Source of the DNA: Alkalilimnicola ehrlichii MLHE-1
GTDB lineage: Bacteria > Pseudomonadota > Gammaproteobacteria > Nitrococcales > Halorhodospiraceae
NCBI RefSeq assembly: GCF_000014785.1
Contig: NC_008340.1
Coordinates: 2,250,001 to 2,282,000, forward strand
Length of the DNA: 32,000 nucleotides
Direction: 5' to 3'
Position 1 is the stretch's first letter, and each line of letters starts with the position of its first letter. Both the position numbers and the translations under genes were made by a program. The notes under the pieces are model-generated. The model ran no database searches. It was not told the DNA's origin and saw nothing but the letters and a program-made list of their open reading frames with translations. Shown here one piece after another: positions 8,712-31,857 of this stretch.

Positions 8712-8790
8712 GTGCAATCCTTTCCGTCATCACGACGGGTCAGCGGGGTCACCACCCCGATGGTTGTTGGCACGGGAATCCCCGTACCGC

Positions 8791-10212: not shown

Positions 10213-10315
10213 AGGGATCCCACCTCGATTACTCCCGCGCGTGGCGTTCCCCACCCGTGGTCCGGGTAGGGCGCGTTCTTAACCCTCAGACAGCGGCGCG
10301 GCCACCGCCGTTCGC

Positions 10316-11020: not shown

Positions 11021-11744
11021 CACCCGCCACCTCCGGCCGGCGCCAGCGGCAACCCCCCCCGGAGGCCTTGTCGATACGGTCCAACAGCGCCTCATGGGCC
11101 CGGCGCTCGGCCTCCCCGGCCCGCACCACTGCAAGGCGGGGCCGATCCGACGGCAGCCGGCGTATCCCACCGCCCTCCCCTTCGTGGGCCTGAGCCTCCT
11201 CCTCGTCCAGGGTGAACAGGGCCTTCTGGCCGCCGGTCATCGCCAGATAAACGTCGGCCAGGATGCGGGCATCGAGCAACGCGCCGTGCAGTTCACGCTG
11301 GGTATTGTCCACGTCGTAGCGCTTGCACAGGGCATCCAGCGAGTTGCGCTGGCCGGGGTGACGTTGCCGGGCCAACAGCAGGGTGTCGAGCACCGAGGCA
11401 AAGTCCTCCACCCGGCCCCAGCCACGGCCCAGACGGCTGAGTTCGTAGTCCAGGAAGCCGACGTCGAAGGCGGCGTTGTGGATCACCAACTCGCTGCCCC
11501 GGATGTACTCGACAAAGCGCTCCGCCACCTCGTGAAAGCGCGGCTTGTCGGCCAGAAAGTCGTTGGTGATGCCGTGCACCTCCACCGCCTCCTGGGGCAC
11601 CTCGCGATCGGGGTTCAGGTACTGGTGGAAGTTATTGCCGGTGGGCCGGCGGTCCACCAGTTCCACGCAGCCGATCTCGATCACCCGATCGCCCTGACTC
11701 CACTCCAGACCGGTGGTCTCAGTATCCAGCACGATCTGCCTCAT
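11013..11744 (-). CDS. dnaQ: DNA polymerase III epsilon subunit (3'-5' proofreading exonuclease)
   Basis: 243 aa. ExoI is [10 protein letters not shown], Exo[15 protein letters not shown] and Exo[19 protein letters not shown]-terminal Q-rich/acidic tail follows, as in DnaQ. Confidence 0.95.
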
Positions 11745-12205
11745 GTCGCGCCCGCCTCCTGCATCTCGTCGATACCCCGATTGGCCAGGGCATCCGCCTG
11801 TTCATTCTCGGCATGGCCGCTGTGCCCGCGTACCCAGTGCCAGTGCACCTCGTGGCGTTGGTTGAGGGCATCGAGCCGACGCCAGAGGTCCTCGTTGAGC
11901 ACCGGCTTGCGGGCCGCCGTGCGCCAGCCCCGGCGCTTCCAGCCGGCCATCCACTCCGTGATCCCTTTGCGGACATATTGCGAGTCGGTGGTCAGGTGCA
12001 CGACACAGGGCCGGTCCAGCGCCTCCAGCGCCTGGATGGCCGCGGTCAGCTCCATGCGGTTGTTGGTGGTGTGGGGCTCGCCGCCGTGCAGCGTGCGCTC
12101 GTGCCCGCGATAGCGCAGCACCACCCCCCAGCCGCCCGGCCCGGGGTTTCCGCGACAGGCGCCGTCGGTCCAGGCGTACACTTCAGATTTGTCGGTGGTG
12201 GACAT
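11741..12205 (-). CDS. rnhA: ribonuclease HI
   Basis: 154 aa. [63 protein letters not shown]. The stop overlaps the dnaQ start (ATGA at 11741-11744). Confidence 0.95.
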
Positions 12206-12998
12206 GGATCCTCGTTCTTGGTGTCGGCTGGACCAGCCGCCCCGGCACCTCCACCGGCGGCGTCTGCCAGACTTGCTTCATATCGATCGGGGCAGGCCGG
12301 CGCTTGCGCGCCTGCAGGAGATGAACACCCGCCAGCCAGGGGGCCAGCCGCCGCTCCCAACCGTTGCGCGCCCGGACCCGGGTGCCCGCCCGGGGCCAGG
12401 GGGCCTTGAGGCCGTGATAGGCCTGGTGCCGGCATTCGAGACCGTGGCGGGCCAGCAGCAAGGTCAGGAGCCCCGGGCCAAGCCCGCGCCGGCGCATTAC
12501 CGGGCGGGCGCGCAGGTGGCGCAGCCCCCAGGTGCTCCAGGCGTTGAACCCCAGCACCCACAACTCCCCCTCCGGCGCCAGCACCTCGACGGCCTCGCGG
12601 ATCAGCGAGGCGGGATCCGCGCTGCAATCCAGCGCATGGGCAAGCAGGAGCAGGTCCACACTCTCCTTGCGCAGCGGGAGCTGCTCCAGGTCGGTGCACG
12701 CATCGGCACCAGCGGTCGGCTCCCAGTCAAGCGCCCAGCAGTCGCTCGCGGGCAGTGCCATGAACAGGCCGTCCCCAAGCCAGCTGCCCCCCACCCGCAC
12801 CACTCGCGCCCGCGGGCCATGGGGGGCGCTGCGCTGTATACGCTCATCGAGGACCGACCGCTCGATCCCGGCCAACTCCCGGCCTGCCGGGGTCTGAAAC
12901 CATTGCACCAGCGAATCCAAGAGCCGGCACCTCCCCAGTTGCCGCATTGTCCGGTCCGGCGGGCCGCAGCCCCGCCCCGTGGCCCGGCCGACTAGCAT
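12183..12998 (-). CDS. YafS-like putative SAM-dependent methyltransferase-fold protein
   Basis: It occupies the position between gloB and rnhA that yafS holds in E. coli. [49 protein letters not shown] resembles the YafS core as I recall it. The start is ambiguous: ATG at 12998 or the internal ATG at 12947. The 3' end overlaps the rnhA start by 23 nt. Confidence 0.7.
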
Positions 12999-15892: not shown

Positions 15893-16702
15893 TCACCCCC
15901 CGAACAGGCGTCCGAAGAAGCCTTTCTTTTCCACGGTGAGAAACCGGTGTGGGCGCTCTTCGCCCAGGAACCGGGCCACCGCGTCCTGGTAAGCCTGGCC
16001 GGCATCCGAGTCCCCGTCCAGGATCACCGGGATGCCGGCGTTGGAGGCATTGAGCACCGCCTGCGACTCCGGGATCACCCCCAGAAGCTCCACCGCCAGG
16101 ATCTCCCCCACATCGTCCACGGACAGCATATCGCCACGATCCACGCGCTCCGGCGAATACCGGGTCAGCAACAGCCGGCCGCTGATCGGTTCGCCGCCCT
16201 GCTCCGCACGCCGGGTCTTACTGGCCAGGATCCCCAGCACCCGGTCGGAGTCCCGCACGCTGGAGACCTCCGGGTTGGTCACCACAATCGCCTCATCGGC
16301 GAAGTAGGCCGCCATCAGTGCGCCCCGCTCGATCCCGGCCGGCGAATCACAGATGATGTAGTCGAACTGCTGGGACAGCTCATCCAGGACCCGCTCCACG
16401 CCGGCGTGGGTGAGCGCATCCTTGTCGCGGGTCTGCGAGGCGGGGAGGATGAACAGGTCCTTCACCCGCTTGTCCTTGATCAGCGCCTGATTCAGGTTAG
16501 CGTCACCGTTGATGACGTTGACGAAGTCGTACACCACACGGCGCTCGCAGCCCATGATCAGGTCCAGGTTGCGTAGCCCCACGTCGAAATCGATCACGGC
16601 GGTCCGGTGCCCGGCCTCGGCCAGGCCGGCCGCCATGGCGGCGCTGGTGGTGGTCTTGCCCACCCCGCCCTTACCGGAGGTCACTACGACGATCTTTGCC
16701 AC
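15893..16702 (-). CDS. minD: septum site-determining ATPase MinD
   Basis: 269 aa. It has the deviant Walker A motif [13 protein letters not shown] and a C-terminal amphipathic helix ([11 protein letters not shown]). The start is GTG, with GAGGAG 8 nt upstream. Confidence 0.97.
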
Positions 16703-16734: not shown

Positions 16735-17460
16735 TTACAGCGGGGCCACCTTCAGGCTGTCGCCCTCCAGGTAAATCTGTACGTTCCTGCCACGTTCGTC
16801 GTCGCCAATGTGCTCACTGACCCGGTACTGCCCGGCGATGGAGACCAGTTCCGGGTCCAGCCGGGCGCAGAAGATGCGCGCCTCGGTATCCCCCTGCACA
16901 CCGGCCATGGCGCGCCCCTTGAGCGCGCCATAGATGTGGATATGGCCGTCGGCCAGCACCTCGGCACCGGCGCTGACCATGGAGGTGACGATGAGATCCC
17001 CTCCCCGGGCATAGACCTGCTGGCCGGAACGCACCGGTTGGGTGATCAGCATCGAACGGGTCGGTTGCGGCGCCGGCGCGGGGGCCGGCGAAGGCTCCGG
17101 CTCCGGCCCGGCCTTAGGGGGCGCCGGCGCCCGGCCACTCGCCTCAATCAGCGGCAGGCCGGCGCCTGCCGCGAATGCCACGGCCTGGTCACCGGCCGGC
17201 CTGACCCCCAGGACCACCAGGCCGTGCGCCTGTAGCGCCTGGCGCAGCGCCTCGCCATCCAGATCGGCCACTGTCTCGCCCAGCGGCTCGGGGTCGAGCA
17301 ATACCGGGAGCCCGCGGAAAAACTCGGGGGCCTCCGCGATACGGGCAGCCAGGCTGTCCAGCAGATCCGTCTGCTGCGCGGTCAACAGACGCAGCACCGT
17401 GACGGTCATCATTCGCCCTTTAAACTCCAGGGCCCTCACACGCGTGGCCTCCACGCTCAT
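16735..17460 (-). CDS. minC: septum site-determining protein MinC
   Basis: 241 aa. It has an N-terminal FtsZ-interaction domain, a Pro/Ala-rich linker and a C-terminal beta-helix (VRSGQQVYARGGDLIVTSMVSAGAEVLADGHIHIYGALKGRAMAG). It heads the minCDE operon. Confidence 0.9.
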   Translation of the reverse strand: MSVEATRVRALEFKGRMMTVTVLRLLTAQQTDLLDSLAARIAEAPEFFRGLPVLLDPEPLGETVADLDGEALRQALQAHGLVVLGVRPAGDQAVAFAAGAGLPLIEASGRAPAPPKAGPEPEPSPAPAPAPQPTRSMLITQPVRSGQQVYARGGDLIVTSMVSAGAEVLADGHIHIYGALKGRAMAGVQGDTEARIFCARLDPELVSIAGQYRVSEHIGDDERGRNVQIYLEGDSLKVAPL

Positions 17461-17938: not shown

Positions 17939-18682
17939 TTAGATCCGCCGCGCCATCCAGACCACTCGCCCGACAATGTTCAGTTCAGCGGCATCCTCGG
18001 TGCTGATATGCTGATCGGCATACTGCGGGTTATCACTCCGGACCCACAGCCCACCCTTCCAGTCCACCTGCAGGCGCTTGGCCACCACGTGGTGTTCGAG
18101 CCGTAAGACATAAATGGCGTCTTCGGCAGGCTCCTGCTCTCGGGTGTCCACCAGGAGCAGATCCCCATCCGCCACCGTCGGCACCATGGAATCGCCGCCG
18201 GCGCCGACCAGCACCAGCCCGTCCGGGGCCAGCCCCTCCCCTAGCAGCCAGTCACGGCGGAAGGCCAGCCGCTCCAACATCCGCTGCTCAGCGGGCTGGT
18301 CGGCAGAGGGATGGGACTGGGCGTCGTACCAGGGAATCAATGCGAACTCACCCGCGTACCGCGTCTGCAGGCTGCTCGCAACTCGCAGCCCTGCGGTCTC
18401 ACCGCAATCGCGCACCGGTAACTCGCCGGTTGCCAGCCAACCGACCCGGATGTCCGCGGCGCGGGCGATCATAATCAACTTCTCGAGCCCGGGCATCGAG
18501 CCCTCGAGATACTTACGGATAAGGCTGTCGCTCATGCCACACTTCTGCGCAAAGCGAAACACTGGCTGATCACCGATCGCAAGACGCAGACGCCGGGAGA
18601 ACGCCGCACCTACGCTTTCCGCCTCACGCTCCCCCCCTGACATGACTTCCTTGAGCCGCTGCTGCTCTTGTGCTTTATGCAT
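17939..18682 (-). CDS. CI/LexA-like transcriptional repressor (HTH + S24 peptidase domain)
   Basis: 247 aa. The N-terminal XRE-type HTH is FAQKCGMSDSLIRKYLEGSMPGLEKLIMIARAADIRVGWLATG. The C-terminal S24 domain has the Ser nucleophile in GGDSMVPT (Ser165) and the Lys in VVAKRL (Lys202). Their 37-residue spacing matches LexA S119/K156. Confidence 0.85.
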   Translation of the reverse strand: MHKAQEQQRLKEVMSGGEREAESVGAAFSRRLRLAIGDQPVFRFAQKCGMSDSLIRKYLEGSMPGLEKLIMIARAADIRVGWLATGELPVRDCGETAGLRVASSLQTRYAGEFALIPWYDAQSHPSADQPAEQRMLERLAFRRDWLLGEGLAPDGLVLVGAGGDSMVPTVADGDLLLVDTREQEPAEDAIYVLRLEHHVVAKRLQVDWKGGLWVRSDNPQYADQHISTEDAAELNIVGRVVWMARRI

Positions 18683-19236: not shown

Positions 19237-19818
19237 TCAGGGCCGCTGCCGATAGGTCCGCTGCGCCGCATCCTCTTCCGGCATGCTCAGCATGCGTTCC
19301 TCCTCGGGGAGTGCCAGCTGGGCCCGCAGGTAATCGGCGCGATCCGCCACCGTAGGTGGTGGCTCGTCCATGTGCAGCAGGCGGGTGATCCAGCCTGGCC
19401 CGTCCGCCACCCCGTCATCCAGGTACAGGGCGTATTCATAGTCCGCCAGCGCCTGTTCAAAGCGCCCCATGCGGTCGTAAGCAATCCCCCGGTTGGCATA
19501 GGTCCCGGGAAACCCGGGCACCCGTTCGATGGCCTGATCAAACCAGTGGACGGCCTCCTCATGGCGCCCCTTCTGCAGCAGGGTGCGGGCCTTGCCTCGA
19601 ATGGCATCGATACGCTCGGGGTCCGCCTGGAGGGCATCGCGGTAGTTGCGCAGGGCACGCTCATAGTGGCCGTCGGCAAAGGCGCGGTCCGCCGCCTTGT
19701 GGGCCACCTCGCCCGGCGCCGGGTCCGTGCGCAGGGCCTCGAAGATAATCCAGCCGGTGGACAGCACCATCACGGCCACAGCGAGTCGGGTTAGGATTCG
19801 ACGGCTGAGTTCATCCAT
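19237..19818 (-). CDS. membrane-anchored tetratricopeptide-repeat (TPR) protein
   Basis: 193 aa. It has one N-terminal TM helix (LTRLAVAVMVLSTGWIIFEAL) and then TPR-like units (ADGHYERALRNYRDALQADP, GRHEEAVHWFDQAIERVP, GRFEQALADYEYALYLD). The ATG at 19816-19818 overlaps the upstream ORF's stop in ATGGATGA. Confidence 0.75.
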   Translation of the reverse strand: MDELSRRILTRLAVAVMVLSTGWIIFEALRTDPAPGEVAHKAADRAFADGHYERALRNYRDALQADPERIDAIRGKARTLLQKGRHEEAVHWFDQAIERVPGFPGTYANRGIAYDRMGRFEQALADYEYALYLDDGVADGPGWITRLLHMDEPPPTVADRADYLRAQLALPEEERMLSMPEEDAAQRTYRQRP

Positions 19819-20050
19819 AGCTCGGCATACCCACGATATTGAGGCTGAAAATGAAGGAGAACGAGATACTGATGAAGGTGGCCAACACCCAGGCGCGCCT
19901 TTTTTGTCCGGCCAGTTCTTCCTCCGACAGCTCCCGCTGCACCCGAATCTGCAATCGGCGAACGCTGAAATTAAAAATCAAGTGTCGCACCGGAAACGAC
20001 AAAAGGATTGCAAAGGCAATGACGTACATTGCGAACGTGAATGGCGTCAT
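19811..20050 (-). CDS. small 2-TM membrane protein (79 aa), function unknown
   Basis: MTPFTFAMYVIAFAILLSFPVRHLIF...RAWVLATFISISFSFIFSLNIVGM. The ATG at 20048-20050 has AGGAGG 5 nt upstream; the track starts 2 codons earlier at a GTG. G+C is visibly lower than in its neighbours. It is coupled to the TPR gene by an 8-nt overlap. Confidence 0.5.
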   Translation of the reverse strand: MTPFTFAMYVIAFAILLSFPVRHLIFNFSVRRLQIRVQRELSEEELAGQKRRAWVLATFISISFSFIFSLNIVGMPSYG

Positions 20051-20060
20051 CGACACCTCC

Positions 20061-20112: not shown

Positions 20113-22287
20113 TCAGCTCTTGGCCGGCGCAGGCTCTGGTTGCCTCACATCCGGGCTGCTGACCGCATCCTCGTCGTAGAGGATCTCGATCTCCTTCTTC
20201 GGCACGGTGCTCATCTCCATCTTGTAGCAAAGGAACCACATCATGAACACGCCGAACAGCCAGCACAGGATCTGGTAGACGTAGATGGACGGGAAGCCGA
20301 ACACCCACCAGGTCGACGGATCACTCGGGTTACCGAACAGGTAGGTCCCGATGATGTTGCCCGGGCCGATGGCGAAGATGTAGTACACCGCAACGATGCC
20401 CCAGGCCACCGGGATGAGCCGGCGCTTATCCTGCGGCACCCCGGCGTGCTCCCGCAGCCACTTGTGGAACGTCTCCTTGTGTTCCATCTCGCGGGCATCC
20501 TGGGTGAACGCCGACACCGCAATGGCCACACCCATGTTCAGCACAATACCCCAACCACCGGAGTGGATGGTGAGCGGCCAACGGCCCCAGGGCAGATCCA
20601 GCCCCAGCGTGCTGGCCAGTGCCAGGCCCATGTTATCGGTGAACAGCACGGCCAGGATACCGACGATCAGGCCAGCCACCACGCCCTGCCGGGTCAGCCA
20701 CGACCAGTAGCAGACCGCGATCAGCGGCACCCACATCTGCAGGCCCAGTGCCACCGCGGTACCGCCCAGCAACACCAAGGCGTCCGTGGTGAAGGTCGCC
20801 ACCATCAACGCCGCAAACACCAGGATGACCACGACGATGCGACCCACTTGCTTCTGAACGTTGTGACTGACATTGGGGTTGATGAACCGCCGGAGCACAT
20901 CGCGGGTATAGATCCCGGATGTCGTGGACATGTAGGCCGCACCCGTGGACTGGAACGCACCCAGCGCACAAACCGCCAGCAGACCCACAAACCAGGGGGC
21001 CACCCCCTCCAACAGGCCCATCAGCTGCGGCACCAGGCCGGTGTCACCACCACCCTCGCGGCGCAGGTCCACCCAACCGGCCACTTCACGCGGGTCCTCC
21101 CCGGCACGCAGGGCCACCAGACCGTCATCGATCATCTGGTTGACCTCGCCGCGGCTCAACTCCGGGTTGAAGGTCGCGATCAGGCCACGCTGCAGCACCA
21201 CATCCTCCCGGCTGTCGTACAGATCCCGGTACTGCCCCAGGGTCTCCTCATAGGCCGGGTTGTGGACGTCGCGGGCCAGGTCCGTGTTGGCCCCCAGGCC
21301 GTGACCGGCCATGGCCTGCACCGCCAGCAGCACCACGATCACCGCACCGGAGATCAGGGCCGAGGCCCAGGTCTGCTGCGGGGCGAACGGCCGCGGGTCC
21401 TTGTTGGAGAAGGCCCACATGGTGAAGGAGGGCGAGGCCATGATGCCGGCCATGCTCATCATGTAGCTGAGCACCATCACCGAGGTCCAGGCACCACCGG
21501 TCGCATCCCCGACGTTGCTGACCCACTGGATCACCCCGGGTGTCGCCACGTAGCCGCTGTGCCCAGCCGGCGTAAGCCCCGGTCGACCAGCCTCCTGCCC
21601 ACCGGTGATCAGGTCCCACTGGCTCGCCGCGGCGATCGCCCGTGACAGCTCGCCGATGGAGCCCATGTAGTTGATGGCCACGAAGCTGATCGCGGTCATG
21701 CCGAACAGCAGCAGGACACACTGCATGGCGTCCACGTAGGCCACCGCCCGAAGACCGCCGGAGGCGACGTAGAACAACACGATGGCAGAGAGCGCCCACA
21801 TCCCCACGTTGGTGCCCAGGGCACCGTCAGTGAGGATGTTGAACAGGAACCCGGAGGCCCGCAGTTGGATACCCAGATAGGGAATCGCGAAGATGGTGGC
21901 GACGATGACCACCAGCCAAATGATGGCATTGCTGCGGAAGTAGGTCCCGTACATCTCTCCCGGCGTGACGAACCCCCAGCGGCGCCCGATCATCCACTGC
22001 CGCTTGAGGAACAACATACCGGAGATGGGGATGCCGATGGCGTACAGCCCAATGAAACCGTACTGCAGCCCGGTCATGTAAAGCAGGCCGGGGTGACCGA
22101 CAAAGGTCCACCCCGACCAGGATGTGGCGGTGGCTGCGAGTATGAACACCCACATGGGCACCGACCGCCCGGAAATGAAATAATCACTGGCGGTTTTCGT
22201 CGCCAGGGCACCCTTGATGCCCCAGAAGATACAGTACCCCCAATAGAGGCCGACGAAAACCAAAAGCCATATGGCCTTGGGTTCCAT
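20113..22287 (-). CDS. sodium:solute symporter family (SSF/SLC5) transporter, atypically long (724 aa)
   Basis: The SSF N-terminal signature is SDYFISGRSVPMWVFILAATATSWSGWTFVGHPGLLY. I count about 14-15 hydrophobic helices by eye. A roughly 90-residue hydrophilic insertion lies at about residues 333-425, and there is an acidic C-terminal tail. GGAGGGGAG lies before the ATG at 22287. Confidence 0.9.
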   Translation of the reverse strand: MEPKAIWLLVFVGLYWGYCIFWGIKGALATKTASDYFISGRSVPMWVFILAATATSWSGWTFVGHPGLLYMTGLQYGFIGLYAIGIPISGMLFLKRQWMIGRRWGFVTPGEMYGTYFRSNAIIWLVVIVATIFAIPYLGIQLRASGFLFNILTDGALGTNVGMWALSAIVLFYVASGGLRAVAYVDAMQCVLLLFGMTAISFVAINYMGSIGELSRAIAAASQWDLITGGQEAGRPGLTPAGHSGYVATPGVIQWVSNVGDATGGAWTSVMVLSYMMSMAGIMASPSFTMWAFSNKDPRPFAPQQTWASALISGAVIVVLLAVQAMAGHGLGANTDLARDVHNPAYEETLGQYRDLYDSREDVVLQRGLIATFNPELSRGEVNQMIDDGLVALRAGEDPREVAGWVDLRREGGGDTGLVPQLMGLLEGVAPWFVGLLAVCALGAFQSTGAAYMSTTSGIYTRDVLRRFINPNVSHNVQKQVGRIVVVILVFAALMVATFTTDALVLLGGTAVALGLQMWVPLIAVCYWSWLTRQGVVAGLIVGILAVLFTDNMGLALASTLGLDLPWGRWPLTIHSGGWGIVLNMGVAIAVSAFTQDAREMEHKETFHKWLREHAGVPQDKRRLIPVAWGIVAVYYIFAIGPGNIIGTYLFGNPSDPSTWWVFGFPSIYVYQILCWLFGVFMMWFLCYKMEMSTVPKKEIEILYDEDAVSSPDVRQPEPAPAKS

Positions 22288-22691
22288 TACTTCTCCCCTC
22301 CATCATATATTCAACTTATTTATACTGCAGAGCAGCACTGTCCCGAACTCGAAATGACGAGAAAACCGGTTCCAGCCCACTCTGCTCCGGATTCTAGTCT
22401 AGCGAATGGAGTTTTCCAACATCCTGTTTTTGCGTAGATTTTTTACTTTTTTGCGACTTCACTCCACTTTATTAGCACCACTCCAAAAAAACTTTAACGA
22501 TCCTCTAAACGAAGGGGAAAAATACCCGAGGACCCCTTATTTTTTGCCCACACAAAAAGAAAAAAAGGGGATTAAACACTTGGGCCACAGGCACTTTTTT
22601 GTCAGTCTACATTCATCGCGAAAGCGGCTATCTTTGACGGCACACCACGATGGATCCCGATCCTTAAGCAGATCCAGAGGACTGACATCAC
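22288..22691. promoter_or_regulatory. 404-bp AT-rich divergent control region (symporter operon <-> DUF294/exonuclease operon)
   Basis: By my count 22441-22500 has 20 G/C of 60 nt and 22501-22560 has 26 of 60, against roughly two-thirds G+C in flanking genes. There are many A/T tracts of 5 nt or more. CACTCCA occurs as a direct repeat at 22460-22466 and 22479-22485. An imperfect inverted repeat CCCCTTATTTTTT (22533-22545) / AAAAAAAGGGG (22560-22570) is also present. Confidence 0.6.
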
Positions 22692-24560
22692 ATGGAGATC
22701 GAACGCCTGGCCTCGGCAGAGGCCTTCGGTGCCGTGGACAACGAAGCCTTGGGCGCCCTGCTGGCTCACGGCACCGAACACCGCCTAGAGGATGACGAGG
22801 TCATCTTCCGCATCGGGGAGCCGGATAAGAATATCCTGTACATTGTCTACGACGGTCGCGTCACCCTGACCGGCACCGACGGGAGTAGCACCCTGTACGA
22901 GGCCGTGGCGCTGCTCGGTCTCTCCAGCTACTTCGACGACGAGCCCTACTCCCTGACCGCCCGGGCCGCGGGGCCCTGCCAGCTCATCGAGGTACCGTTC
23001 AGCGCTGTACGGTGCCTGGAGCGGGAGCACCCTGCCCTCGCCGACGCCTTGAGTCACATCATTGCCGACCGCATCCGCGCCGGGACCGCCCAGTGGCGCA
23101 CCGGGGCGGTGGGCGCCCTTTCACAGCCCGTCCGCTGGGCCATGACCGCGCCCCTGGTCTGCCTGCCAGGTGGCGCCAGCCTGACTGAGGCGTACCAGCT
23201 CATGGCCGCCCGCGGCATCGGCAGCCTGGGGGTGGTGGACGGGCAGGACCGGCTGATCGGGCTGGCCACCATCAAATCCCTCGCCCACCGGCTGCTCATC
23301 GAACGCCAGAGCCCGGATGCGCAGCTGTCCACCGCCGCCATGCCGGCCAGGCGCATTTCGCCGGATGCCGCCCTGTGGCAGGCGGAGGAGATCCAGGCAC
23401 GGGAGGCGCTGAAGTACCTGGTGGTGGCGGAAAACGACCGCCCCCTGGGCATGCTCTCGCAGAGCAACCTCATCGAGACCATCCGCGCCCACCAGACCCT
23501 GTTGCGTGACCGGGTGGAGCGTACGGGCACCCTGGCCGACCTGCAGGCCCTCGCCGCCGAGTTACCCAGCGTCGCCCGCCAGGCGCGTGAGGCCAACCGC
23601 GAGGCCAGCCGGGCGGTAACCCAGCTCAGTGAATTCCACCTGCAGCTCCAGCGACGCTGCGTCGAGATACTCCTCACGGAGTTGGCATCGGAAGGTCTCG
23701 GCCCCCCGCCCCGGCGCTATGCCCTGCTGGTCATGGGATCGCTGGCCCGGCGGGAGTCGCTGCTCAATCCGGATCAGGACAACGCCCTGATCATCGCCGA
23801 TAACCGGCCTGGCGAGACGGAGCCGAGCCCCCTCGACGACCGCGAGCGGCGTTGGTTCGACACCTTTGCTGATCGCCTGAATCACCGGCTGGACGCCCTG
23901 GGCTACGACTGGTGCCAGGGTCACATCATGGCCCGCACGCCGGTATGGCACCGTCAACTAGGTCAGTGGCGGCAATGGGTCATGACGGCGACACGACACC
24001 CGAACGGAGACCGGGCCCGCTGGGCCAATATCTTCCTGGACTTTGAACTGCTGCAGGGCGATGCCGGCCTGGTGGATGCGCTCTGGCGGGCGGTTCTGGA
24101 GGCCTTTGCGCAGCACCGAAAGCTGCTGCGGTTCATGGCCGCCGACGATGCCGAGGGCACACCGGCGCTCGGGCTGTTCAACCGGTTGGTCACCTCCGAG
24201 CGCGAAGAGGCCCGGGGTCGGGTCGATATCAAACGCAACGGCATGCGCATCCTGGCCAATGGCTGCCGCATTTACGCCCTTGGCCACCAGGTGCGGGCGA
24301 CCGGCACCCTGGCCCGCTTGCAGGCCCTGCGCCACCAAGGCGTGCTCACGCCGGACAAGGTGGATTCGTTGGTGGCCGCCCAGGAGGCCCTGCTGGGCCT
24401 GCTACTGGACCACCAGCTTCGGCAGTGGGGCGAGGGCCGGCGCCCGGACAAGTACATCGCCCCGGACGCGCTGGACGAGATGCAGCGCCAGGCGTTGGTC
24501 ACCAGCCTGCGCGCCATTCGCCGGTTCCAGGACCGGGTGCAAGGCGTCTTCGGCCTTTAG
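22692..24560 (+). CDS. cNMP-binding-like + tandem CBS + DUF294-type nucleotidyltransferase + DUF294 C-terminal domain protein (COG2905 architecture)
   Basis: 622 aa.
- Residues 1-125 form a cNMP-fold domain (EVIFRIGEPDKNILYIVYDGRVTL...LTARAAG).
- Residues ~145-265 form two CBS motifs.
- The pol-beta NTase signature LLVMGSLARRESLLNPDQDNALI has G349-S350 and D361-x-D363.
- Residues ~440-620 form a helical C-terminal domain. Confidence 0.85.
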   Translation: MEIERLASAEAFGAVDNEALGALLAHGTEHRLEDDEVIFRIGEPDKNILYIVYDGRVTLTGTDGSSTLYEAVALLGLSSYFDDEPYSLTARAAGPCQLIEVPFSAVRCLEREHPALADALSHIIADRIRAGTAQWRTGAVGALSQPVRWAMTAPLVCLPGGASLTEAYQLMAARGIGSLGVVDGQDRLIGLATIKSLAHRLLIERQSPDAQLSTAAMPARRISPDAALWQAEEIQAREALKYLVVAENDRPLGMLSQSNLIETIRAHQTLLRDRVERTGTLADLQALAAELPSVARQAREANREASRAVTQLSEFHLQLQRRCVEILLTELASEGLGPPPRRYALLVMGSLARRESLLNPDQDNALIIADNRPGETEPSPLDDRERRWFDTFADRLNHRLDALGYDWCQGHIMARTPVWHRQLGQWRQWVMTATRHPNGDRARWANIFLDFELLQGDAGLVDALWRAVLEAFAQHRKLLRFMAADDAEGTPALGLFNRLVTSEREEARGRVDIKRNGMRILANGCRIYALGHQVRATGTLARLQALRHQGVLTPDKVDSLVAAQEALLGLLLDHQLRQWGEGRRPDKYIAPDALDEMQRQALVTSLRAIRRFQDRVQGVFGL

Positions 24561-24574
24561 CGGGGTGCTGACTG

Positions 24575-25702
24575 ATGCCTGACGTGACCCAGTCGCCCCG
24601 GAACGGAGACCACCGGTGCGCCCCGGAGCCCGAGCGTCAGCTGATCGCGGTTCGGCTGGAGGCGGCCCGCCGGCCGCGGGGGGCGGGGGACCCAACGCAG
24701 ATCACCGCGGCACAGCAGCGGCTGGTGGCACAGCTCCGGGCCCGGGGCCTGCCCGCGGGTCGCATACAGCGCCGGCTTACCACCCTGAACAATACAGTCA
24801 TCCGCCGGCTCGCCCGACAGGCGGTGGCCGTGGCGCTCCGGCGTGGCGCCGGACCGCCGCCGGTGCGCTTCTGTCTGCTGGTGATGGGCTCAGGCGCCCG
24901 TGACGAGCACTTCCTGGGGCCGGACCAGGACCATGGCATGGTCCTGGCGGACTACCCCGACCGGGATCATGACGCGGTCGATGCCTGGTTCCGCTGCTAC
25001 AGCAGCCACCTGGTGGAGCGCCTGGAGGCCGCCGGCTTTCCCCGTGATACCGGCGACGTCATGTGCACCAACCCGCTCTGGCGCAAAACGCTGGGGCAGT
25101 GGACGCAGCAGATCACCACCTGGGCGCGGCGGGCCGATACCGTCAGCCTCTGCCTCGCCGACGTACTGCTGGACTGCCGCCCCCTGTTTGGGGCCCCGGC
25201 GCTGGCCCGCGCCCTGCGCACAGCGCTGACCCGGCAATTGGCCACAGCAGCGTTCCTGAAGGCCACGGTCATGGCCCATGGCGACCGCGGTGTCGGACTG
25301 GGGTGGTTCAACCGCTTTGTCACTATGGGCCGGTCCGATCCCCACCGGGGCTGCATCAACCTCAAGCACACGGCCCTGCTCCCCTTCATCACCGCCGCAC
25401 GGCAGTTGGCCCTTTACCACCGTGTCCCGGCGCTCAGCACCCGGGGGCGCTTACGGGGCCTCCACCGTCGGGGGGCGCTCACCGAGGCCGACCACCAAGC
25501 CCTGCAGACAGCCATGGACACCCTGGCGGACCAAGTCCTGCGCCACCAGCTCCGGCAACTGCACGAAGGGCAGACAGCGGACTATTTCCTCGACCCGACG
25601 GCCCTGCCGGCGGAGGAGCGGCAAGCCTTGAAAGAGGCCCTGAAGCGAATTCGCCGCTTGCGCGACCAGGCGCGCAATGACATCACCGGACAGATCTTCT
25701 GA
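24575..25702 (+). CDS. DUF294-type nucleotidyltransferase paralogue lacking the sensor domains
   Basis: 375 aa, starting 14 nt after the upstream stop. GAGPPPVRFCLLVMGSGARDEHFLGPDQDHGMVLAD aligns with GLGPPPRRYALLVMGSLARRESLLNPDQDNALIIAD of the upstream gene. The C-terminal halves are also alignable (LGWFNRFVT.../LGLFNRLVT...; ...HQLRQLHEG/...HQLRQWGEG). Confidence 0.8.
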   Translation: MPDVTQSPRNGDHRCAPEPERQLIAVRLEAARRPRGAGDPTQITAAQQRLVAQLRARGLPAGRIQRRLTTLNNTVIRRLARQAVAVALRRGAGPPPVRFCLLVMGSGARDEHFLGPDQDHGMVLADYPDRDHDAVDAWFRCYSSHLVERLEAAGFPRDTGDVMCTNPLWRKTLGQWTQQITTWARRADTVSLCLADVLLDCRPLFGAPALARALRTALTRQLATAAFLKATVMAHGDRGVGLGWFNRFVTMGRSDPHRGCINLKHTALLPFITAARQLALYHRVPALSTRGRLRGLHRRGALTEADHQALQTAMDTLADQVLRHQLRQLHEGQTADYFLDPTALPAEERQALKEALKRIRRLRDQARNDITGQIF

Positions 25703-25717
25703 GGAGGCACGAAGACC

Positions 25718-27907
25718 ATGTCTGTCTCTGATCATAGTGAACACTGGGTGGAGCGGATCAGCCGGGGTCTGCTCGGCCGGCACGCCACGCCTACCGGCCA
25801 CACCAGCCGCCGACTGCTGTTCTGGGCGCCGGCAATGGGGCTGGCTGTTCTGCTGACAGGGCTGTTGCTCGGCCTCGCCTATCTCTCCCTCTCCGCGCTG
25901 CCCGCCGGCGCCGACCCAACACCGCTGGTGGTCGCCTTCGGCGCTGCGGGGCTGCTCCTGCTGGCGGCGATCACGGCCATCTGGCTGTTGCTGGATGCCA
26001 CCGTGCTGCGCTCCCTGTCCGCGCTGGCCCGCGATGCGGCCATACTGGCCTACACCAACCCCGATCACCGGCTTCAGCTGCCGTCGGTGCACCTGCTCGG
26101 CGAGTTGCCCGGGACGCTGCGCAACCTCGCCCGCCAGTTGCAGGTCCGGCGCCGGGAGGTAGAGGCCGCCGCGGCCACGGCCGCCGAACAGGCCGAGGCG
26201 CAGAAGGCGCGGCTGGAGGTGGTGCTGCGCGCCATCCGGCAGGGGGTCGTGGTCTGTGATGCCGACGGACGGATCCTGCTCTACAACCCCGCCGCCGGTG
26301 AGCTGCTCCACAGCGACGCCCTGGGGCTTGGCCGCTCCATCCATGAACTGTTGAACCCAGCCGCCGTTGAGCACCCCCGACAACTGCTGCAACACCGACT
26401 GCGCCAGGATTCGGACGACCCGGTCATGGACGAGGGGGTGGAGTTCGTCTGTACCACGGTCGATGACGGCGCCCTGCTCCGCTGCCAGATGAGTCTGCTG
26501 CCGACCCACGGCCCGCTGCGCTCGGCCTTCGTCATCACCCTGGAGGACATCACCCGCCGGATCGAAGGCGTGGCCCGCCGTGACCAAGCCCTGCGCAGCG
26601 CCGTGGAGGCCCTGCGCTCGCCCCTGGCCGCGGTGTCGGTGGCGGCGGAGCTGCTCAACGAGTACCCGCAGATCGACGATGCCCGCCGACGCCGGTTCAT
26701 CGACATCCTGGCCAAAGAGAGCCACGTGCTGGTCCAGCGCTTCGAACAAATCGCGGAGGCCACTCAGGAGAACGTCTCCGCCCCCTGGACCATGGCCGAT
26801 ATCAGCAGCGACGATTTGGTGGACAGCGTGTTGCTGCGCCACCGCGACACCCTGCCCCGCGTGGCGCTGGCTGGCCTGCCCCTATGGCTCCATGCGGAGA
26901 GCCACGCCATCGGACTCGTGCTCACCCATCTGTTGCACCGTCTGGGACGGGACCACGGCGTCCTGGCCGTGCGCATCGAGGCGCTGATGGGCAACCGCCG
27001 GGTGTACCTGGACATCTCCTGGGCGGGCGAGCCGGTGCCGGGCCCCACCCTAGAGCAGTGGCTTGAGACCCCGTTGCCGGAGGCCATAGGGGAATTGAAC
27101 GCCCGCGCCGTGCTCGAGCGGCACAACAGCCTGGCCTGGAGTCAACGGGACCGGCGAACGCCGGGGTGGGCGTGCCTGCGCATCCCGTTGCCTGCCTCCA
27201 GCCGGCAATGGAACCCGCCCGGGGAGAGCCTCCCCCCGCGCCCGGAATTCTATGACTTCTCTCTCATCGACCAGGCCGCGGACCAGGGCGCTCTCCTCGA
27301 CCGGCCCCTGGACGCGTTGAACTACGTGGTGTTCGACACCGAGACCACCGGCCTGTCTCCAGCGGAGGGTGACGAGATCGTCTCCATCGCCGGGGTGCGA
27401 ATGGTCAATGGCCGCCTCCTGGACGGCGAGCGCTTCGAGCAACTGGTCAACCCCGGCCGGACCATCCCCCGCAGCTCGATCCTGTTCCACGGCATTCACG
27501 ATACGACGGTCGCGGATAAGCCCCGCATCGAAACGGTACTGCCGCGATTCCACACCTTCGTCGGCGACTCAGTGCTGGTCGCCCACAACGCCGCCTTCGA
27601 CATGAAGTTCATCCGACTGAAGGAGCGGCGCTGCGGCGTGCGCTTCGACAACCCGGTTCTGGACACGCTGCTGCTCTCGGTCTTTCTCCACGACCACACC
27701 GCGGACCACACCCTCGAGGCCATCGCCGCTCGGCTTGGGGTGGAGGTGACCGCGCAGCACACCGCCTGGGGCGATGCCCTGGTCACGGCACGGGTCTTCG
27801 CCTGCCTGTTACCGCTACTGCGCGAACGGGGGGTCCACACGCTAAGGGACGCGGTGGCGGCATCAGAGCGGATGGTGGAGGTACGCCGGCAACAGGCGCA
27901 GTTCTGA
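25718..27907 (+). CDS. membrane sensor (2 TM, HAMP-like, PAS, degenerate HisKA/HATPase) fused to a DEDDh 3'-5' exonuclease domain
   Basis: 729 aa, starting 15 nt after the upstream stop, with GAGGAGG 10 nt upstream.
- TM helices at about residues 34-58 and 68-92, then a coiled-coil.
- PAS domain ([30 protein letters not shown]).
- DHp-like helix [12 protein letters not shown], with Glu297 where the phospho-acceptor His would be.
- The N, G1 and G2 boxes are degenerate.
- Exonuclease motifs [22 protein letters not shown] and HTAWGD lie within residues ~534-705. Confidence 0.85.
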
Positions 27908-27927: not shown

Positions 27928-27956
27928 GGTGCGGGGCGACCCATGCGCCCCGCACC
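27928..27956. terminator. 11-bp GC-rich hairpin between the convergent exonuclease-fusion gene and htpG
   Basis: GGTGCGGGGCG (27928-27938) pairs perfectly with CGCCCCGCACC (27946-27956) around a 7-nt loop. No clear U-tract on either strand, so function as an intrinsic terminator is uncertain. Confidence 0.45.
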
Positions 27957-30038: not shown

Positions 30039-30452
30039 CGTCTTGCGAGCGATCATCGGGATACGGTGCAAACGGCCATGCTGTATACCGGGCCTGGCCA
30101 TGACTGACTCGGCAAACCCTTCAATCTGAGCAGCCTCTCCCTTGAGCATGACCGCCTCCACACAGAGGTCGTGATCCACGTGCATATGCAACGTCGTCAC
30201 CGTCAGATCGAAATGTGCATGATGGGCCTCGGTTAACCGCTTGGCCAGTTCACGCTCTTTGTGGTCATAAAGATAGGTCAGCACCCCAACGCACGGCGTA
30301 TCCGGACGCTCATCGAGTGCCTCGGAGCCTAGCGCACCACGGATCAGGTCGCGAACAGCCTCGGACCGGTTGTTATACCCCCGCCTCTCCAGAAAGTTAT
30401 CGAACTCGGCCGCCAATCCGCTTTCCAATGAGACCGTCACCCGCTCACTCAT
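30033..30452 (-). CDS. nikR: nickel-responsive transcriptional regulator NikR
   Basis: 139 aa from the ATG at 30450-30452. It has the ribbon-helix-helix MSERVTVSLESGLAAEFDNFLERRGYNNRSEAVRDLIR. All four high-affinity Ni-site residues of E. coli NikR are conserved by eye-alignment: H76 in AHHAH, H87/H89 in LHMHV, and C95 in HDLC. The track ORF adds 24 codons that lie inside the kinase gene. Confidence 0.9.
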   Translation of the reverse strand: MSERVTVSLESGLAAEFDNFLERRGYNNRSEAVRDLIRGALGSEALDERPDTPCVGVLTYLYDHKERELAKRLTEAHHAHFDLTVTTLHMHVDHDLCVEAVMLKGEAAQIEGFAESVMARPGIQHGRLHRIPMIARKTP

Positions 30453-31857
30453 CCGGACACCCCACGCTGCTCTCATCTGTCTCCAACGGCAGCCGCAGGC
30501 GGAACAACGCCCCGCCTTGGACATGGTTGTCGCCGCTTAGCTGGCCCCCATGACGCTCCACTATCCCAAAGCTGACCGAGAGCCCCAGTCCGGTTCCCTT
30601 CCCCACGGGTTTGGTGGAAAAAAAGGGATCAAATATCCGCCCCAATGCCTCCTCATCAATCCCTGGCCCGTTATCGTGGAACCAGAGCTCTACCATTCCA
30701 TCCACCACATGACCGGAGATTCGCAACACTGGATCCGGGCACCCCTGCAAGGCATCAACCGCGTTGCTCACGAGGTTAACGACCACCTGCTGCATCTGCC
30801 CCTGTGAGCCACGGACCCAGTACGGCTGCTGCAAGGCATGGACAACGGAAACGGGGTGGGATACCGCCTTCTCCACCCAATGCACTGATCGCTCCACCAC
30901 CTCCCGCAGATCAAACACCTGATCCGCATCCCGGTCTACTGCTGCAAAACGTTTCAAGGCATCCACGATATCGTGCGTGCGCTCAGCCCCTTCGACTGTC
31001 CCCTCGAGTAGCGGCGCAATATCCTCCAGGACGTAGTCGATGCGGAGTTTACTCCTCAGGCGTTGCTGCTCTTCCGCGCTCACTCCCCGGTGGATGGCGC
31101 CCAGATACTCCTCAAGACGCCCGAGATAACGCTTCAGGGCGAAGGCATTACCCACGACAAAGCTAATGGGATTGTTCAGCTCATGGGCCACACCGGCAAC
31201 CAGCTGACCGATCGATGCCAGCTTTTCGCTTTGAATGAGTTGCTGTTGGGTCCGCTTCAAGCTCTCATGGGCCTCACTTAAGTCATGGTAAGCCTGTCGC
31301 AGTTCGCCGACCGGCCGCCCGATCAAAACCAATCCCTGAATCCGTCCGATCCGGTCACGCAGAGGCGCACAGTTCACCGCCACCGGGTTATGGCCGCCCC
31401 GGTGATCAACGAAGTTGACCTCGCAATCATTAACCGCCACAGCCTCGGCATGCTCAAAAACGCCCCTGGTCAACAGGCGATCACGGGATGCCTGATCGGC
31501 AAGGAGATCCCGCAGCGGCCGCCCCACCAGTACATCGCTACCCTCTCCTACCAGCTGTTCCATAGCCGGGTTCACCCGCTGGACCCGCCCCTGGTGATCG
31601 CACACCACCAGGACATCCGACATGGCGGAGAGCACACTAAAGAGAAACTGCTGGGAGCGCTCCAGTTCTGCATTCTTGCGCTCGAGCTCCGTCTCGTTCT
31701 CCAGCAGTTCGCTGTAGACCTCATCCATCCGATGGATGACTTCCAGCCAGGTTTGCTCGTCGAAGCTGCCCTCGGAATCGGTCTGCCCTGCCCCGGGCGA
31801 CATGGCCTGATTGAGCAGGGTCTCCGCCCCACGTCGATGTCTTGAACGTTCACCCAT
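30445..31857 (-). CDS. hupT: soluble PAS-domain sensor histidine kinase, HoxJ/HupT-like (H2-signalling kinase candidate)
   Basis: 470 aa with no TM segment. It has a coiled-coil plus PAS (FLFSVLSAMSDVLVVCDHQGRVQRVNPAMEQLVG). The kinase core is intact: H-box GVAHELNNPISF, N-box NLVSNAVDAL, G1 DNGPGI, F-box FDPFFSTK, G2 GTGLGLSVS. It starts 22 nt after the stop of a regulatory-hydrogenase-like large-subunit gene. The symbol is assigned from context only. Confidence 0.85.
   Translation of the reverse strand: MGERSRHRRGAETLLNQAMSPGAGQTDSEGSFDEQTWLEVIHRMDEVYSELLENETELERKNAELERSQQFLFSVLSAMSDVLVVCDHQGRVQRVNPAMEQLVGEGSDVLVGRPLRDLLADQASRDRLLTRGVFEHAEAVAVNDCEVNFVDHRGGHNPVAVNCAPLRDRIGRIQGLVLIGRPVGELRQAYHDLSEAHESLKRTQQQLIQSEKLASIGQLVAGVAHELNNPISFVVGNAFALKRYLGRLEEYLGAIHRGVSAEEQQRLRSKLRIDYVLEDIAPLLEGTVEGAERTHDIVDALKRFAAVDRDADQVFDLREVVERSVHWVEKAVSHPVSVVHALQQPYWVRGSQGQMQQVVVNLVSNAVDALQGCPDPVLRISGHVVDGMVELWFHDNGPGIDEEALGRIFDPFFSTKPVGKGTGLGLSVSFGIVERHGGQLSGDNHVQGGALFRLRLPLETDESSVGCPDE

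Follow-up and report, generated by a model that had tools for sequence, protein, structure and literature searches.

Organisation of the three-gene locus

The window analysed here, a stretch of 32,000 nucleotides of the Alkalilimnicola ehrlichii MLHE-1 genome (contig NC_008340.1, positions 2,250,001 to 2,282,000 of the forward strand), contains a compact cluster of three genes encoding two DUF294 nucleotidyltransferases (NTases) and a predicted membrane pseudokinase fused to a DEDDh exonuclease. The three open reading frames (ORFs) occupy the + strand at window positions 22692-24560 (gene 1, 622 aa), 24575-25702 (gene 2, 375 aa) and 25718-27907 (gene 3, 729 aa), with intergenic gaps of 14 and 15 nt and a GAGGAGG ribosome-binding site ahead of gene 3. 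Upstream, an AT-rich control region of 404 bp (22288-22691; G+C 44% vs ~67% for the window) separates gene 1 from a divergent SSF transporter operon. Downstream, an 11-bp GC hairpin with a perfect stem and a 7-nt loop (27928-27956) is positioned between gene 3 and the convergent htpG gene. An earlier description made from the DNA letters alone (the sequence-only reading) had reported the same ORFs and gaps, the AT-rich divergent region and the hairpin, and the coordinates, base composition and stem agree with it. As an intrinsic terminator the hairpin is unconvincing: it has no U tract, it was not flagged by the terminator scan and its folding is unexceptional for the local G+C (z = -1.5).

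Architecture of the two nucleotidyltransferases

In gene 1 a cyclic nucleoside monophosphate (cNMP)-like domain (aa 17-132; Pfam cNMP_binding E = 6e-11), a CBS pair (aa 143-274; CBS E = 1.5e-12), a DUF294 NTase domain (aa 290-439; E = 8e-39) and a DUF294_C domain (aa 477-619; E = 1e-44) follow one another in the order of COG2905-type proteins, all four above the Pfam cut-offs, and this domain content places the protein in the COG2905/DUF294 family. The second CBS motif was recovered solely through PDB matches to CBS pairs, which cover residues 143-274. The pol-beta-type motif GS-x10-DQD is intact (G349 S350 ... D361 Q362 D363) and is complemented by a third carboxylate, D450. These Pfam and PDB matches bear out the architecture given in the sequence-only reading, namely a cNMP-like domain, two CBS motifs, a GS-x10-DQD NTase and a C-terminal domain. 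For the cNMP-like domain it is the fold that stands and not a canonical function. In a profile alignment with E. coli CRP (97% probability) Glu-72 is replaced by Leu and Arg-82 by Tyr, and with both cAMP-contact residues missing canonical cAMP binding is unlikely; the ligand is probably neither cAMP nor cGMP. The motif LLGLSSYFDDEPYSLTA of the same domain (window 22740-23087) is conserved in close relatives.

Gene 2 carries a DUF294 NTase domain (aa 47-188; E = 6e-40) and a DUF294_C domain (aa 226-368; E = 6e-39) and, by Pfam, nothing else, and is a truncated COG2905-type member with no sensor domain. Its GS-x10-DQD motif is intact (G105 S106 ... D117 Q118 D119; third carboxylate D200), and the alignments show no variation in the catalytic columns of either gene, which comprise the pol-beta motif and the third acidic residue. 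Homologues of gene 2 are mostly CBS-DUF294 proteins of 480-500 aa. The CBS pair has been lost in A. ehrlichii and Alkalispirillum (375-381 aa; the N-terminus of gene 2 corresponds to 24575-24712) and is kept by the genes at the same position in two metagenomic trios (L007:8511-10001 and L008:4066-5562; 496-498 aa). In a neighbour-joining tree gene 2 falls into a CBS-only DUF294 clade with proteins of loci L090 and L091, and gene 1 is found among gammaproteobacterial cNMP-CBS proteins partnered by stand-alone exonucleases. Thus, gene 2 is an old paralogue and not a recent duplicate, and its earlier description as a paralogue with only the NTase and C-terminal domains holds for the domains and the motif but not in the sense of a recent copy of gene 1.

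The AlphaFold model of gene 2 (pLDDT 92) returned four Foldseek matches below E = 1e-3, all of them to GlnE or DrrA: the AT domain of GlnE (two chains of 3k7d; E = 2e-7, query-normalised TM-score 0.64), the N-terminal AR domain of GlnE (1v4a; E = 1e-6) and DrrA bound to Rab8a (6yx5; E = 7e-7). The next matches were aminoglycoside NTases at E ~0.1, RNA terminal uridylyltransferases (TUTases) had a probability below 0.2 and the oligonucleotide synthase HalB one of 0.3 or less. Gene 2 therefore displays the GlnE/GlnD fold, in which a GlnE-like NTase with a G[S]-x10-DxD pol-beta core is joined to a helical substrate-binding domain (GlnE at E ~1e-7, TM-score ~0.6), and DUF294_C belongs to the same Pfam clan as the C-terminal domains of GlnD and GlnE. 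In contrast, Pfam assigns genes 1 and 2 to DUF294 and DUF294_C and not to the GlnE or GlnD models, which are separate families, and the identity to GlnE in the structural alignment is 14-16%. The window NTases thus resemble GlnE and DrrA in fold and lie outside those families. The sensors differ as well, being cNMP-like and CBS domains and not the ACT or PII-binding modules of GlnE and GlnD.

A membrane pseudokinase fused to a DEDDh exonuclease

The gene 3 product, which is 100% identical to an NCBI protein of A. ehrlichii MLHE-1, starts with two transmembrane (TM) helices (aa 33-51 and 70-88) and HAMP-like helices, followed by a PAS domain (aa 176-277), a DHp hairpin (aa 279-351), a CA-like domain (aa 360-493), a linker and the exonuclease. 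A loop of only ~18 residues joins TM1 to TM2, leaving no room for a periplasmic sensor domain. Profile searches of the three proteins, proposed as a check by the sequence-only reading, recovered DUF294, DUF294_C, CBS, cNMP_binding, PAS and RNase_T; in gene 3 PAS and RNase_T were found, HisKA was weak and sub-threshold (E = 7e-4), HATPase_c had no match and HAMP was the sole domain of that reading to lack a direct Pfam match. A family profile built from 37 sequences extends these assignments, matching the VicK kinase 4i5s from HAMP through CA in the PDB (E = 8e-15), the pseudokinase DivL, and TM2-HAMP of Tsr (E = 2e-4). The same order is seen in the AlphaFold model (pLDDT 81), where the two TM helices lead into a helical HAMP-like segment and PAS, the DHp forms a hairpin and the CA-like domain an alpha/beta fold, and a disordered linker precedes the exonuclease. 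The Foldseek matches of the model are the WalK, VicK and YF1 kinases (E = 1e-18 to 1e-14) together with the PolC and DnaQ exonucleases. A DHp hairpin and a CA alpha/beta domain are thus present downstream of HAMP and PAS, and the proposed architecture of two TM helices, HAMP, PAS, degenerate kinase and DEDDh exonuclease is upheld by Pfam, the VicK match, the model and the structural matches alike.

The kinase core (26552-27196) keeps the fold and has lost the chemistry. A comparison by hhalign of the gene 3 family with the canonical kinase of the window aligned the PAS domain alone, and the core was compared in its place by MAFFT with canonical kinases of the same loci and by the PDB profile search. 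The H-box reads AVEALRSPL against the canonical VSHELRTPL, the phospho-acceptor His being replaced by Glu here and by Glu, Asp or Asn across the family. The N-box Asn is missing, the G1 box DNGPGI has become SWAGEP and the G2 box is deleted, all of them family-wide. The loss of the His and of the ATP-binding boxes throughout the family identifies gene 3 as a true pseudokinase, with a core that is predicted from these residues to be unable to autophosphorylate. The order TM-HAMP-PAS-DHp-CA and the fold are those of DivL and WalK/VicK, and the His is replaced as in DivL. Unlike these proteins gene 3 has also lost all ATP-binding boxes and ends in an exonuclease output. By analogy with DivL, its pseudo-DHp may still dock a receiver domain.

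The C-terminal domain (aa 535-728, 27320-27901; RNase_T E = 4e-37) is a DEDDh 3'-5' exonuclease of the PolC-exo/DnaQ-like type. All three motifs are present, Exo I (DxE), Exo II (D) and Exo III (H-x4-D), and the catalytic residues D540, E542, D628, H681 and D686 are conserved in the family and align with those of PolC-exo and the epsilon subunit. PDB entry 2p1j is matched at E = 5e-28, or at 4e-43 with the family profile, against 7e-5 for RNase T with the same profile. Scores against NCBIfam PRK07740 all stayed below its cut-off; it was the top model for the fused exonuclease and, among five stand-alone partners examined, for three, with rank two in one of the remaining pair and rank three in the other. 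The dnaQ_proteo score of gene 3 is 104 bits vs a cut-off of 223, and a canonical dnaQ (11013-11744; RNase_T E = 3.5e-42) adjoins rnhA elsewhere in the window, as the sequence-only reading had noted. On these two grounds gene 3 is not the replicative proofreader, which is what that reading had concluded.

The linker between the pseudokinase and the exonuclease bears the motif RPE[F/Y]YDF (RPEFYDF in gene 3, aa 508-514, 27239-27259). E510, F511, D513 and F514 are invariant and R508, P509 and Y512 are present in at least 90% of the 37 sequences. The motif is found in every long form and is absent from the stand-alone exonucleases. Residues 503-510 and 515-518 have a pLDDT below 50, so that predicted disorder flanks and partly overlaps it. 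The motif could be a docking or modification site. The stand-alone partner exonucleases possess in turn an N-terminal extension of 40-50 aa that is absent from DnaQ.

Conservation of the NTase-exonuclease pair

Eighty diverse DUF294 loci (1.11 Mb; one representative genome per species), collected with a seven-sequence DUF294 alignment as query and carrying flanks of up to 8 kb on each side, were surveyed. In 45 of them, spread across many phyla, a DEDDh exonuclease lies within 300 bp on the same strand, downstream of DUF294 in 40 cases; within 5 kb the count rises to 50/80, and only 52 exonuclease ORFs occur in the 1.11 Mb altogether. The adjacent exonucleases are stand-alone ORFs of 164-364 aa at 41 loci (one of which, L051, is a truncated fused form) and long fused forms at 4/80. 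The window trio conforms to this arrangement, with the gene 3 exonuclease 15 nt after gene 2 on the same strand. Response regulators, acs (19/80 loci), SSF transporters (25/80) and CrbS-like SSF-kinases (9/80) recur in the flanks, and two DUF294 genes are present at 6/80 loci. In a Pelovirga metagenome-assembled genome (MAG; L023:6377-6811) a DUF4212 small symporter subunit, and not an exonuclease, directly follows DUF294, a further link between DUF294 and SSF transporters.

The closest relatives of the window locus (L011, L013 and L015) have the order SSF, small protein, TPR protein, DUF294, stand-alone exonuclease and acs on one strand. Judged by this synteny, the window locus is a rearranged cluster of that type with a fused exonuclease, which gives substance to the earlier description of an expanded, membrane-wired version of the pair. 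Alkalispirillum mobile (L009) and a MAG (L007) share the exact trio together with the divergent SSF-small protein-TPR operon, and a metagenomic contig (L008) has the trio with an SSF gene in which the contig ends. The adjacency of NTase and exonuclease thus holds beyond this genome, as the neighbourhood survey suggested by the sequence-only reading was expected to decide.

The pseudokinase and linker segment was searched against 1.84 billion proteins and matched 295 representatives of 50%-identity clusters at E <= 1e-10; among the best 150 of the 295, most are ~650-750 aa long and match at the same position. Named members belong to Halorhodospira and Competibacter. A paralogous locus is present in the same A. 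ehrlichii genome (L001:1-15081) and in Halorhodospira (L003:1-15127). It comprises a kinase, a sigma54 regulator and acs, then TPR and SSF genes on the opposite strand, which diverge from a cNMP-CBS-DUF294 gene, followed by a REC-only gene (123-125 aa), a fused exonuclease (697-707 aa), a small ORF and a CrbS-like SSF-kinase (917-935 aa). The REC gene sits where gene 2 sits in the window.

Further arrangements of the fused exonuclease are REC, fused exonuclease, small ORF, SSF-kinase and a convergent CBS-DUF294 gene (L090, L091); small ORF, SSF-kinase, REC, fused exonuclease and a DUF294 gene of 486 aa that has no cNMP-like domain (L070, L074); DUF294 immediately next to the fused exonuclease (L010, L051, L075); and a fused exonuclease with no DUF294 nearby (Competibacter L005; L092). 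Across 11 distinct contexts a DUF294 gene is adjacent or in the cluster in nine, a REC-only gene directly precedes the fused exonuclease in six and a CrbS-like transporter-kinase is also present in five. The SSF-kinases that adjoin the fused exonuclease (907-935 aa; L001, L003, L005, L070, L074, L090, L091) come after a small ORF of 65-102 residues and resemble the CrbS/CbrA-type SLC5(SSF)-STAC kinases; others lie near the simple pair (L048, L055, L084). No such kinase is encoded at the window locus, where only the SSF transporter is found, acs and the SSF-kinase being confined to the paralogous and orthologous loci.

The divergent transporter operon and its control region

On the - strand, divergent from gene 1, lie a sodium:solute symporter family (SSF) transporter of 724 aa (20113-22287), a small membrane protein of 81 aa (19811-20056) and, as the last gene of the operon, a TPR protein of 193 aa (19237-19818). 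The transporter matches Pfam SSF in two stretches (E = 6e-26), and its NCBIfam matches to MctP, VC_2705 and PutP are all sub-threshold. A hydrophilic, soluble insertion of ~85 residues (aa ~335-420) is located between its TM segments. Close homologues (E <= 1e-200) adjoin DUF294 genes in L010-L013, L015, L017, L029 and L035. The 81-aa protein, hydrophobic at residues ~1-30 and 57-75, has no Pfam match; its homologues hold the same position in L003, L007, L009-L011, L013, L015 and L029, which makes it a candidate small transporter subunit. The TPR protein has Pfam TPR repeats and a hydrophobic segment at residues 8-26, and its gene is kept downstream of the SSF gene in L001, L003, L007, L009-L011, L013 and L015. 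The ~80-aa protein and the TPR protein always come after the SSF transporter, and the three look like an uncharacterised three-part transporter clade.

The 404-bp control region contains a sigma70-like site on the - strand (22419-22391). A canonical sigma54 site was not found in it. An element GGCAC-T6-G(T/C)C is common to this region and that of Alkalispirillum and is not conserved in L007 or L008; its GG-N9-GC spacing rules it out as a canonical sigma54 site. Neither the window nor the intergenic region gave a meaningful match to Rfam (best match wcaG, E = 0.1). Upstream of the SSF operon of paralogous-type loci, sigma54-like -24/-12 elements (TGGCACG-N4-TCGCT) agree with the consensus at 9/11 positions (- strand of L001:7131-7513, L003:7344-7620 and L010:7514-8000) and fit the sigma54 regulator encoded next door.

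Relation to the simple pair of Pseudomonas

The simple pair is known already, as an uncharacterised module. In Pseudomonas putida/alloputida KT2440 the pair PP_0354/PP_0353, a cNMP-CBS-DUF294 NTase and an RNase_T-like exonuclease, is a direct target of CrbS/R (MxtR/ErdR). In other Pseudomonas species Pflu5625 carries the CrbR ACTU motif and PA3232-PA3235 are co-induced on propionate. Together with the 45/80 adjacent pairs of the survey, these genes match the statement of the sequence-only reading that such pairs stand near actP/acs in Pseudomonas. Deletion of the exonuclease gene PP_0353 in P. putida impairs growth on pyruvate, as do deletions of actP-I and yjcH, and deletion of the NTase gene PP_0354 does not. 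The authors of that study speculate that the nuclease degrades mRNAs. In Shewanella and P. stutzeri, Price et al. observed cofitness between a COG2905/RNase T neighbour and the DUF4212/SSF symporter beside it, and they proposed that this neighbour is needed for symporter expression. Cofitness and P. putida phenotypes lend indirect support to the earlier suggestion that the trio may control the divergent symporter.

The window locus shares with PP_0354/PP_0353 (and with PA3233/PA3232 and Pflu5625) the NTase domains, the exonuclease type and the order of NTase and then exonuclease, and acs, actP/SSF transporters and CrbS-like kinases occur in the surroundings of both types, for the window type with acs and the kinases at the paralogous and orthologous loci only. 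In contrast, the window exonuclease is fused to a TM-HAMP-PAS-pseudokinase module, a sensor-less second DUF294 gene is inserted between the two partners, the transporter belongs to another SSF clade with small and TPR partners and is not ActP/YjcH, no ACTU/CrbR site was found at the locus and the cNMP-like domain is without the cAMP-contact residues. At the paralogous locus acs has as its neighbour a sigma54-dependent regulator (NtrC/AtoC-like) and not a LuxR-type protein such as CrbR/ErdR. The sensor-fused exonuclease, its partnership with REC and SSF-kinase genes and the trio with two NTases were not found described in the searchable literature.

Proposed mechanism

The locus is tentatively interpreted as a lineage-specific elaboration of the widespread DUF294 NTase/DEDDh exonuclease pair, the pair being an accessory of the CrbS/R-type regulon for uptake and activation of acetate and short-chain carboxylates and working as a switch in which addition and removal of a nucleotidyl group oppose each other on a protein, and through it control the symporter next door. 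For the protein-substrate step taken by itself our confidence is lower than for the whole. The NTase or NTases would add a nucleotidyl group to a substrate shared with the exonuclease, which would cut the phosphodiester and free the nucleoside monophosphate (NMP). The state of this substrate would set the activity or expression of the neighbouring monocarboxylate symporter, with the exonuclease as the positive arm. The substrate would be a protein, modified most likely through a tyrosine, a choice made on the GlnE/DrrA fold; candidates are the symporter, its small and TPR partners, Acs, or the RPEFYDF linker of the exonuclease itself. The degenerate cNMP-like and CBS module of gene 1 would gate addition by adenylate or metabolite status, and the HAMP-PAS-pseudokinase module would keep the remover at the membrane beside the transporter and gate removal. 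At the paralogous loci removal would be gated through the REC-only regulator, phosphorylated by the neighbouring CrbS-like SSF-kinase; at the window locus gene 2 would replace the REC protein as a sensor-less second NTase.

The genetics fits any model in which NTase and exonuclease oppose each other on one substrate and the exonuclease promotes transporter function. Within such models the modelled fold of gene 2, with Foldseek matches below E = 1e-3 confined to GlnE and DrrA, and the grouping of DUF294_C with the GlnD and GlnE C-terminal domains favour protein nucleotidylylation. GlnE and GlnD offer a precedent for reversible addition and removal, and GlnE for the use of two paralogous NTase domains. 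DrrA/SidM, the Legionella Rab1 AMPylase that shares the GlnE-like AMPylase fold, forms with SidD a writer/eraser pair of two proteins. The parallels end at the remover: GlnE removes the group by its second NTase domain, GlnD by an HD domain and SidD is a PP2C-like phosphatase, none of them a DEDDh exonuclease, and DrrA is a secreted effector acting on a host GTPase in no transporter or metabolic context.

Several observations weigh against the proposed add/remove switch. We know of no DEDDh exonuclease that detaches nucleotides from proteins; the enzymes closest to the gene 3 exonuclease are DNA proofreaders (PolC-exo, DnaQ), for which a nucleic-acid substrate fits better; and the likeness of the NTases to GlnE and DrrA may reflect ancestry and not substrate. 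Where flanks were adequate, about 30% of the DUF294 loci lack an exonuclease in the vicinity. A substitute eraser was sought at such loci and none was consistent, the genes downstream being a heterogeneous set that encodes an acyl-CoA dehydrogenase, Cache kinases, a single metallophosphoesterase, DUF4212 and EF-hand proteins. Conversely, Competibacter L005:9618-15220 has the order REC, fused exonuclease, small ORF and SSF-kinase with no DUF294 within 10 kb. The ACTU core GAC-N4-GTC is absent from the 404-bp region and from six related intergenic regions, and there is no CrbR-type regulator at the locus, so that regulon membership rests on synteny. The phenotypes in P. putida are mild and concern a pair that is distant and not fused, and PP_0353 and PP_0354 deletions each reduce growth on propionate, which is not simple antagonism. 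Finally, the literature defines no biochemical activity for a DUF294 protein or its partner exonuclease.

In a Competibacterales MAG (L016) the 8 kb that follow the DUF294 gene contain no exonuclease, the flank on the other side being limited to 630 bp. In the Competibacter lineage the partners may not need to be linked in order to function.

Prediction of the DUF294/COG2905 signalling nucleotidyltransferase dates from 1999, and the enzyme is still without a substrate; as the sequence-only reading had stated, none is defined, and a preprint of September 2026 still calls the function unclear. In the fused variant the exonuclease is a regulated component, predicted to be membrane-localised, and not a housekeeping nuclease, and two NTases can stand beside it; taken with what the P. 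putida deletions show, such features suggest an antagonistic cycle of addition and removal. If the substrate is a protein, the exonuclease would represent a new class of eraser enzyme. In its boldest form, which we regard as unlikely, the DEDDh "exonuclease" would be a protein de-nucleotidylylase hydrolysing Tyr-O-NMP written by DUF294, the two forming a new reversible cycle on SSF carboxylate transporters or Acs in many phyla, with the fused eraser as the output of a relay from SSF-kinase through REC and pseudokinase to the exonuclease. If the substrate is RNA, the locus would represent a 3'-end editing system that is gated by signals and dedicated to the expression of the transporter.

Alternative explanations

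The RNA version is the main rival, although it is somewhat unlikely. DUF294 would add non-templated nucleotides to the 3' end of an RNA or oligonucleotide (symporter or acs mRNA, or a small RNA), the exonuclease would trim them, transcript stability would be set post-transcriptionally and the sensor fusion would bring trimming to the membrane, where transporter mRNA is translated. An enzyme that adds nucleotides to 3' ends has its natural opponent in a 3'-5' exonuclease, and the CCA-adding enzyme and RNase T are such a couple, a pol-beta-superfamily NTase opposed by a DEDDh 3'-5' exonuclease at one 3' end. The intact DEDDh residues, the closest exonuclease relatives, which act on nucleic acids, and the very strong adjacency of NTase and exonuclease all agree with this view. 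The comparison is limited by the fact that the genes for CCA-adding enzyme/RNase T and for poly(A) polymerase I (PAP)/exoribonucleases are not adjacent and encode no sensor domains, that the CCA/PAP class is not the nearest match of the DUF294 fold and that the window exonuclease is PolC/DnaQ-like and not RNase T-like. A destabilising tail removed by the exonuclease would account for an exonuclease deletion that phenocopies actP-I and an NTase deletion that is silent on pyruvate, and the mRNA-degradation speculation of the P. putida authors and the symporter-expression proposal of Price et al. point in the same direction. Against it stand the DUF294 fold, which is that of protein AMPylases (E ~1e-7) with TUTases at the low probability given above, and the grouping of DUF294_C with GlnD and GlnE; Pfam detects no RNA-binding domain in the three proteins, and no conserved structured RNA or Rfam family was found at the locus.

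It is quite improbable that the two enzymes stand in a regulator-effector relation, the NTase nucleotidylylating the exonuclease itself, for example on the linker Tyr or, in stand-alone forms, on their N-terminal extension, and thereby turning it on or off, with the exonuclease as the actual output acting on a nucleic acid. GlnE and DrrA, whose fold DUF294 has, control their targets by Tyr-AMPylation, a nearly invariant Tyr lies in the disordered linker of the fused forms, the stand-alone partners have an extension that DnaQ lacks, and in the fused forms sensor and REC inputs converge on the exonuclease. As the linker motif is missing from the stand-alone exonucleases, no common modification site is evident. 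If nucleotidylylation activated the exonuclease, deletion of the NTase should phenocopy deletion of the exonuclease on pyruvate; it does not, and only an inhibitory version survives.

A second-messenger cycle, in which the NTase makes a linear or cyclic (oligo)nucleotide, the exonuclease degrades it and the cNMP-like domain senses the product, is very improbable. Messenger synthases do occur among pol-beta-fold NTases, gene 1 does have a cNMP-like domain and some DEDDh enzymes degrade dinucleotides, Orn and NrnC acting on pGpG. On the other side, Foldseek gave no match of the CD-NTase, OAS or cGAS type and for HalB a probability of <=0.3, the Arg and Glu that bind phosphate are missing from the cNMP-like domain, the neighbourhood conserves neither an effector nor a receptor gene and PADLOC found no defence match beyond generic DEDDh models.

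An incidental adjacency, with gene 3 as a DNA repair or replication exonuclease paralogue or an anti-phage part beside signalling genes, could draw on the likeness to PolC/DnaQ proofreaders and on matches to the PADLOC DEDDh and PDC-S48 models, but it is hardly credible given the conserved order and strand of the pair in 45/80 loci across many phyla, surroundings of conserved metabolic and transport genes and not of defence islands, the canonical dnaQ-rnhA elsewhere in the window and the lack of any PADLOC match for genes 1 and 2. The reading of the trio as a defence system was rejected, genes 1 and 2 having no PADLOC match and gene 3 matching generic DEDDh models alone.

Other genes of the window

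The canonical dnaQ (243 aa) and rnhA (154 aa) genes (11013-12205) are encoded on one strand with a 4-nt overlap. A minD-like ATPase gene is found at 15893-16702 and minC at 16735-17460. Two long ORFs, 8710-10269 and 12189-12995, have no Pfam match and are overlapped by ORFs on the opposite strand. Approximately 2.5 kb downstream of the trio, on the opposite strand, lies the canonical cytoplasmic PAS-HisKA-HATPase_c kinase (470 aa; 30445-31857), for which no relation to the trio was established. A repressor-like gene combining a helix-turn-helix with an S24 peptidase domain is located at 17939-18682, and the same S24 gene stands ahead of the transporter operon in both Alkalispirillum (L009) and L007.

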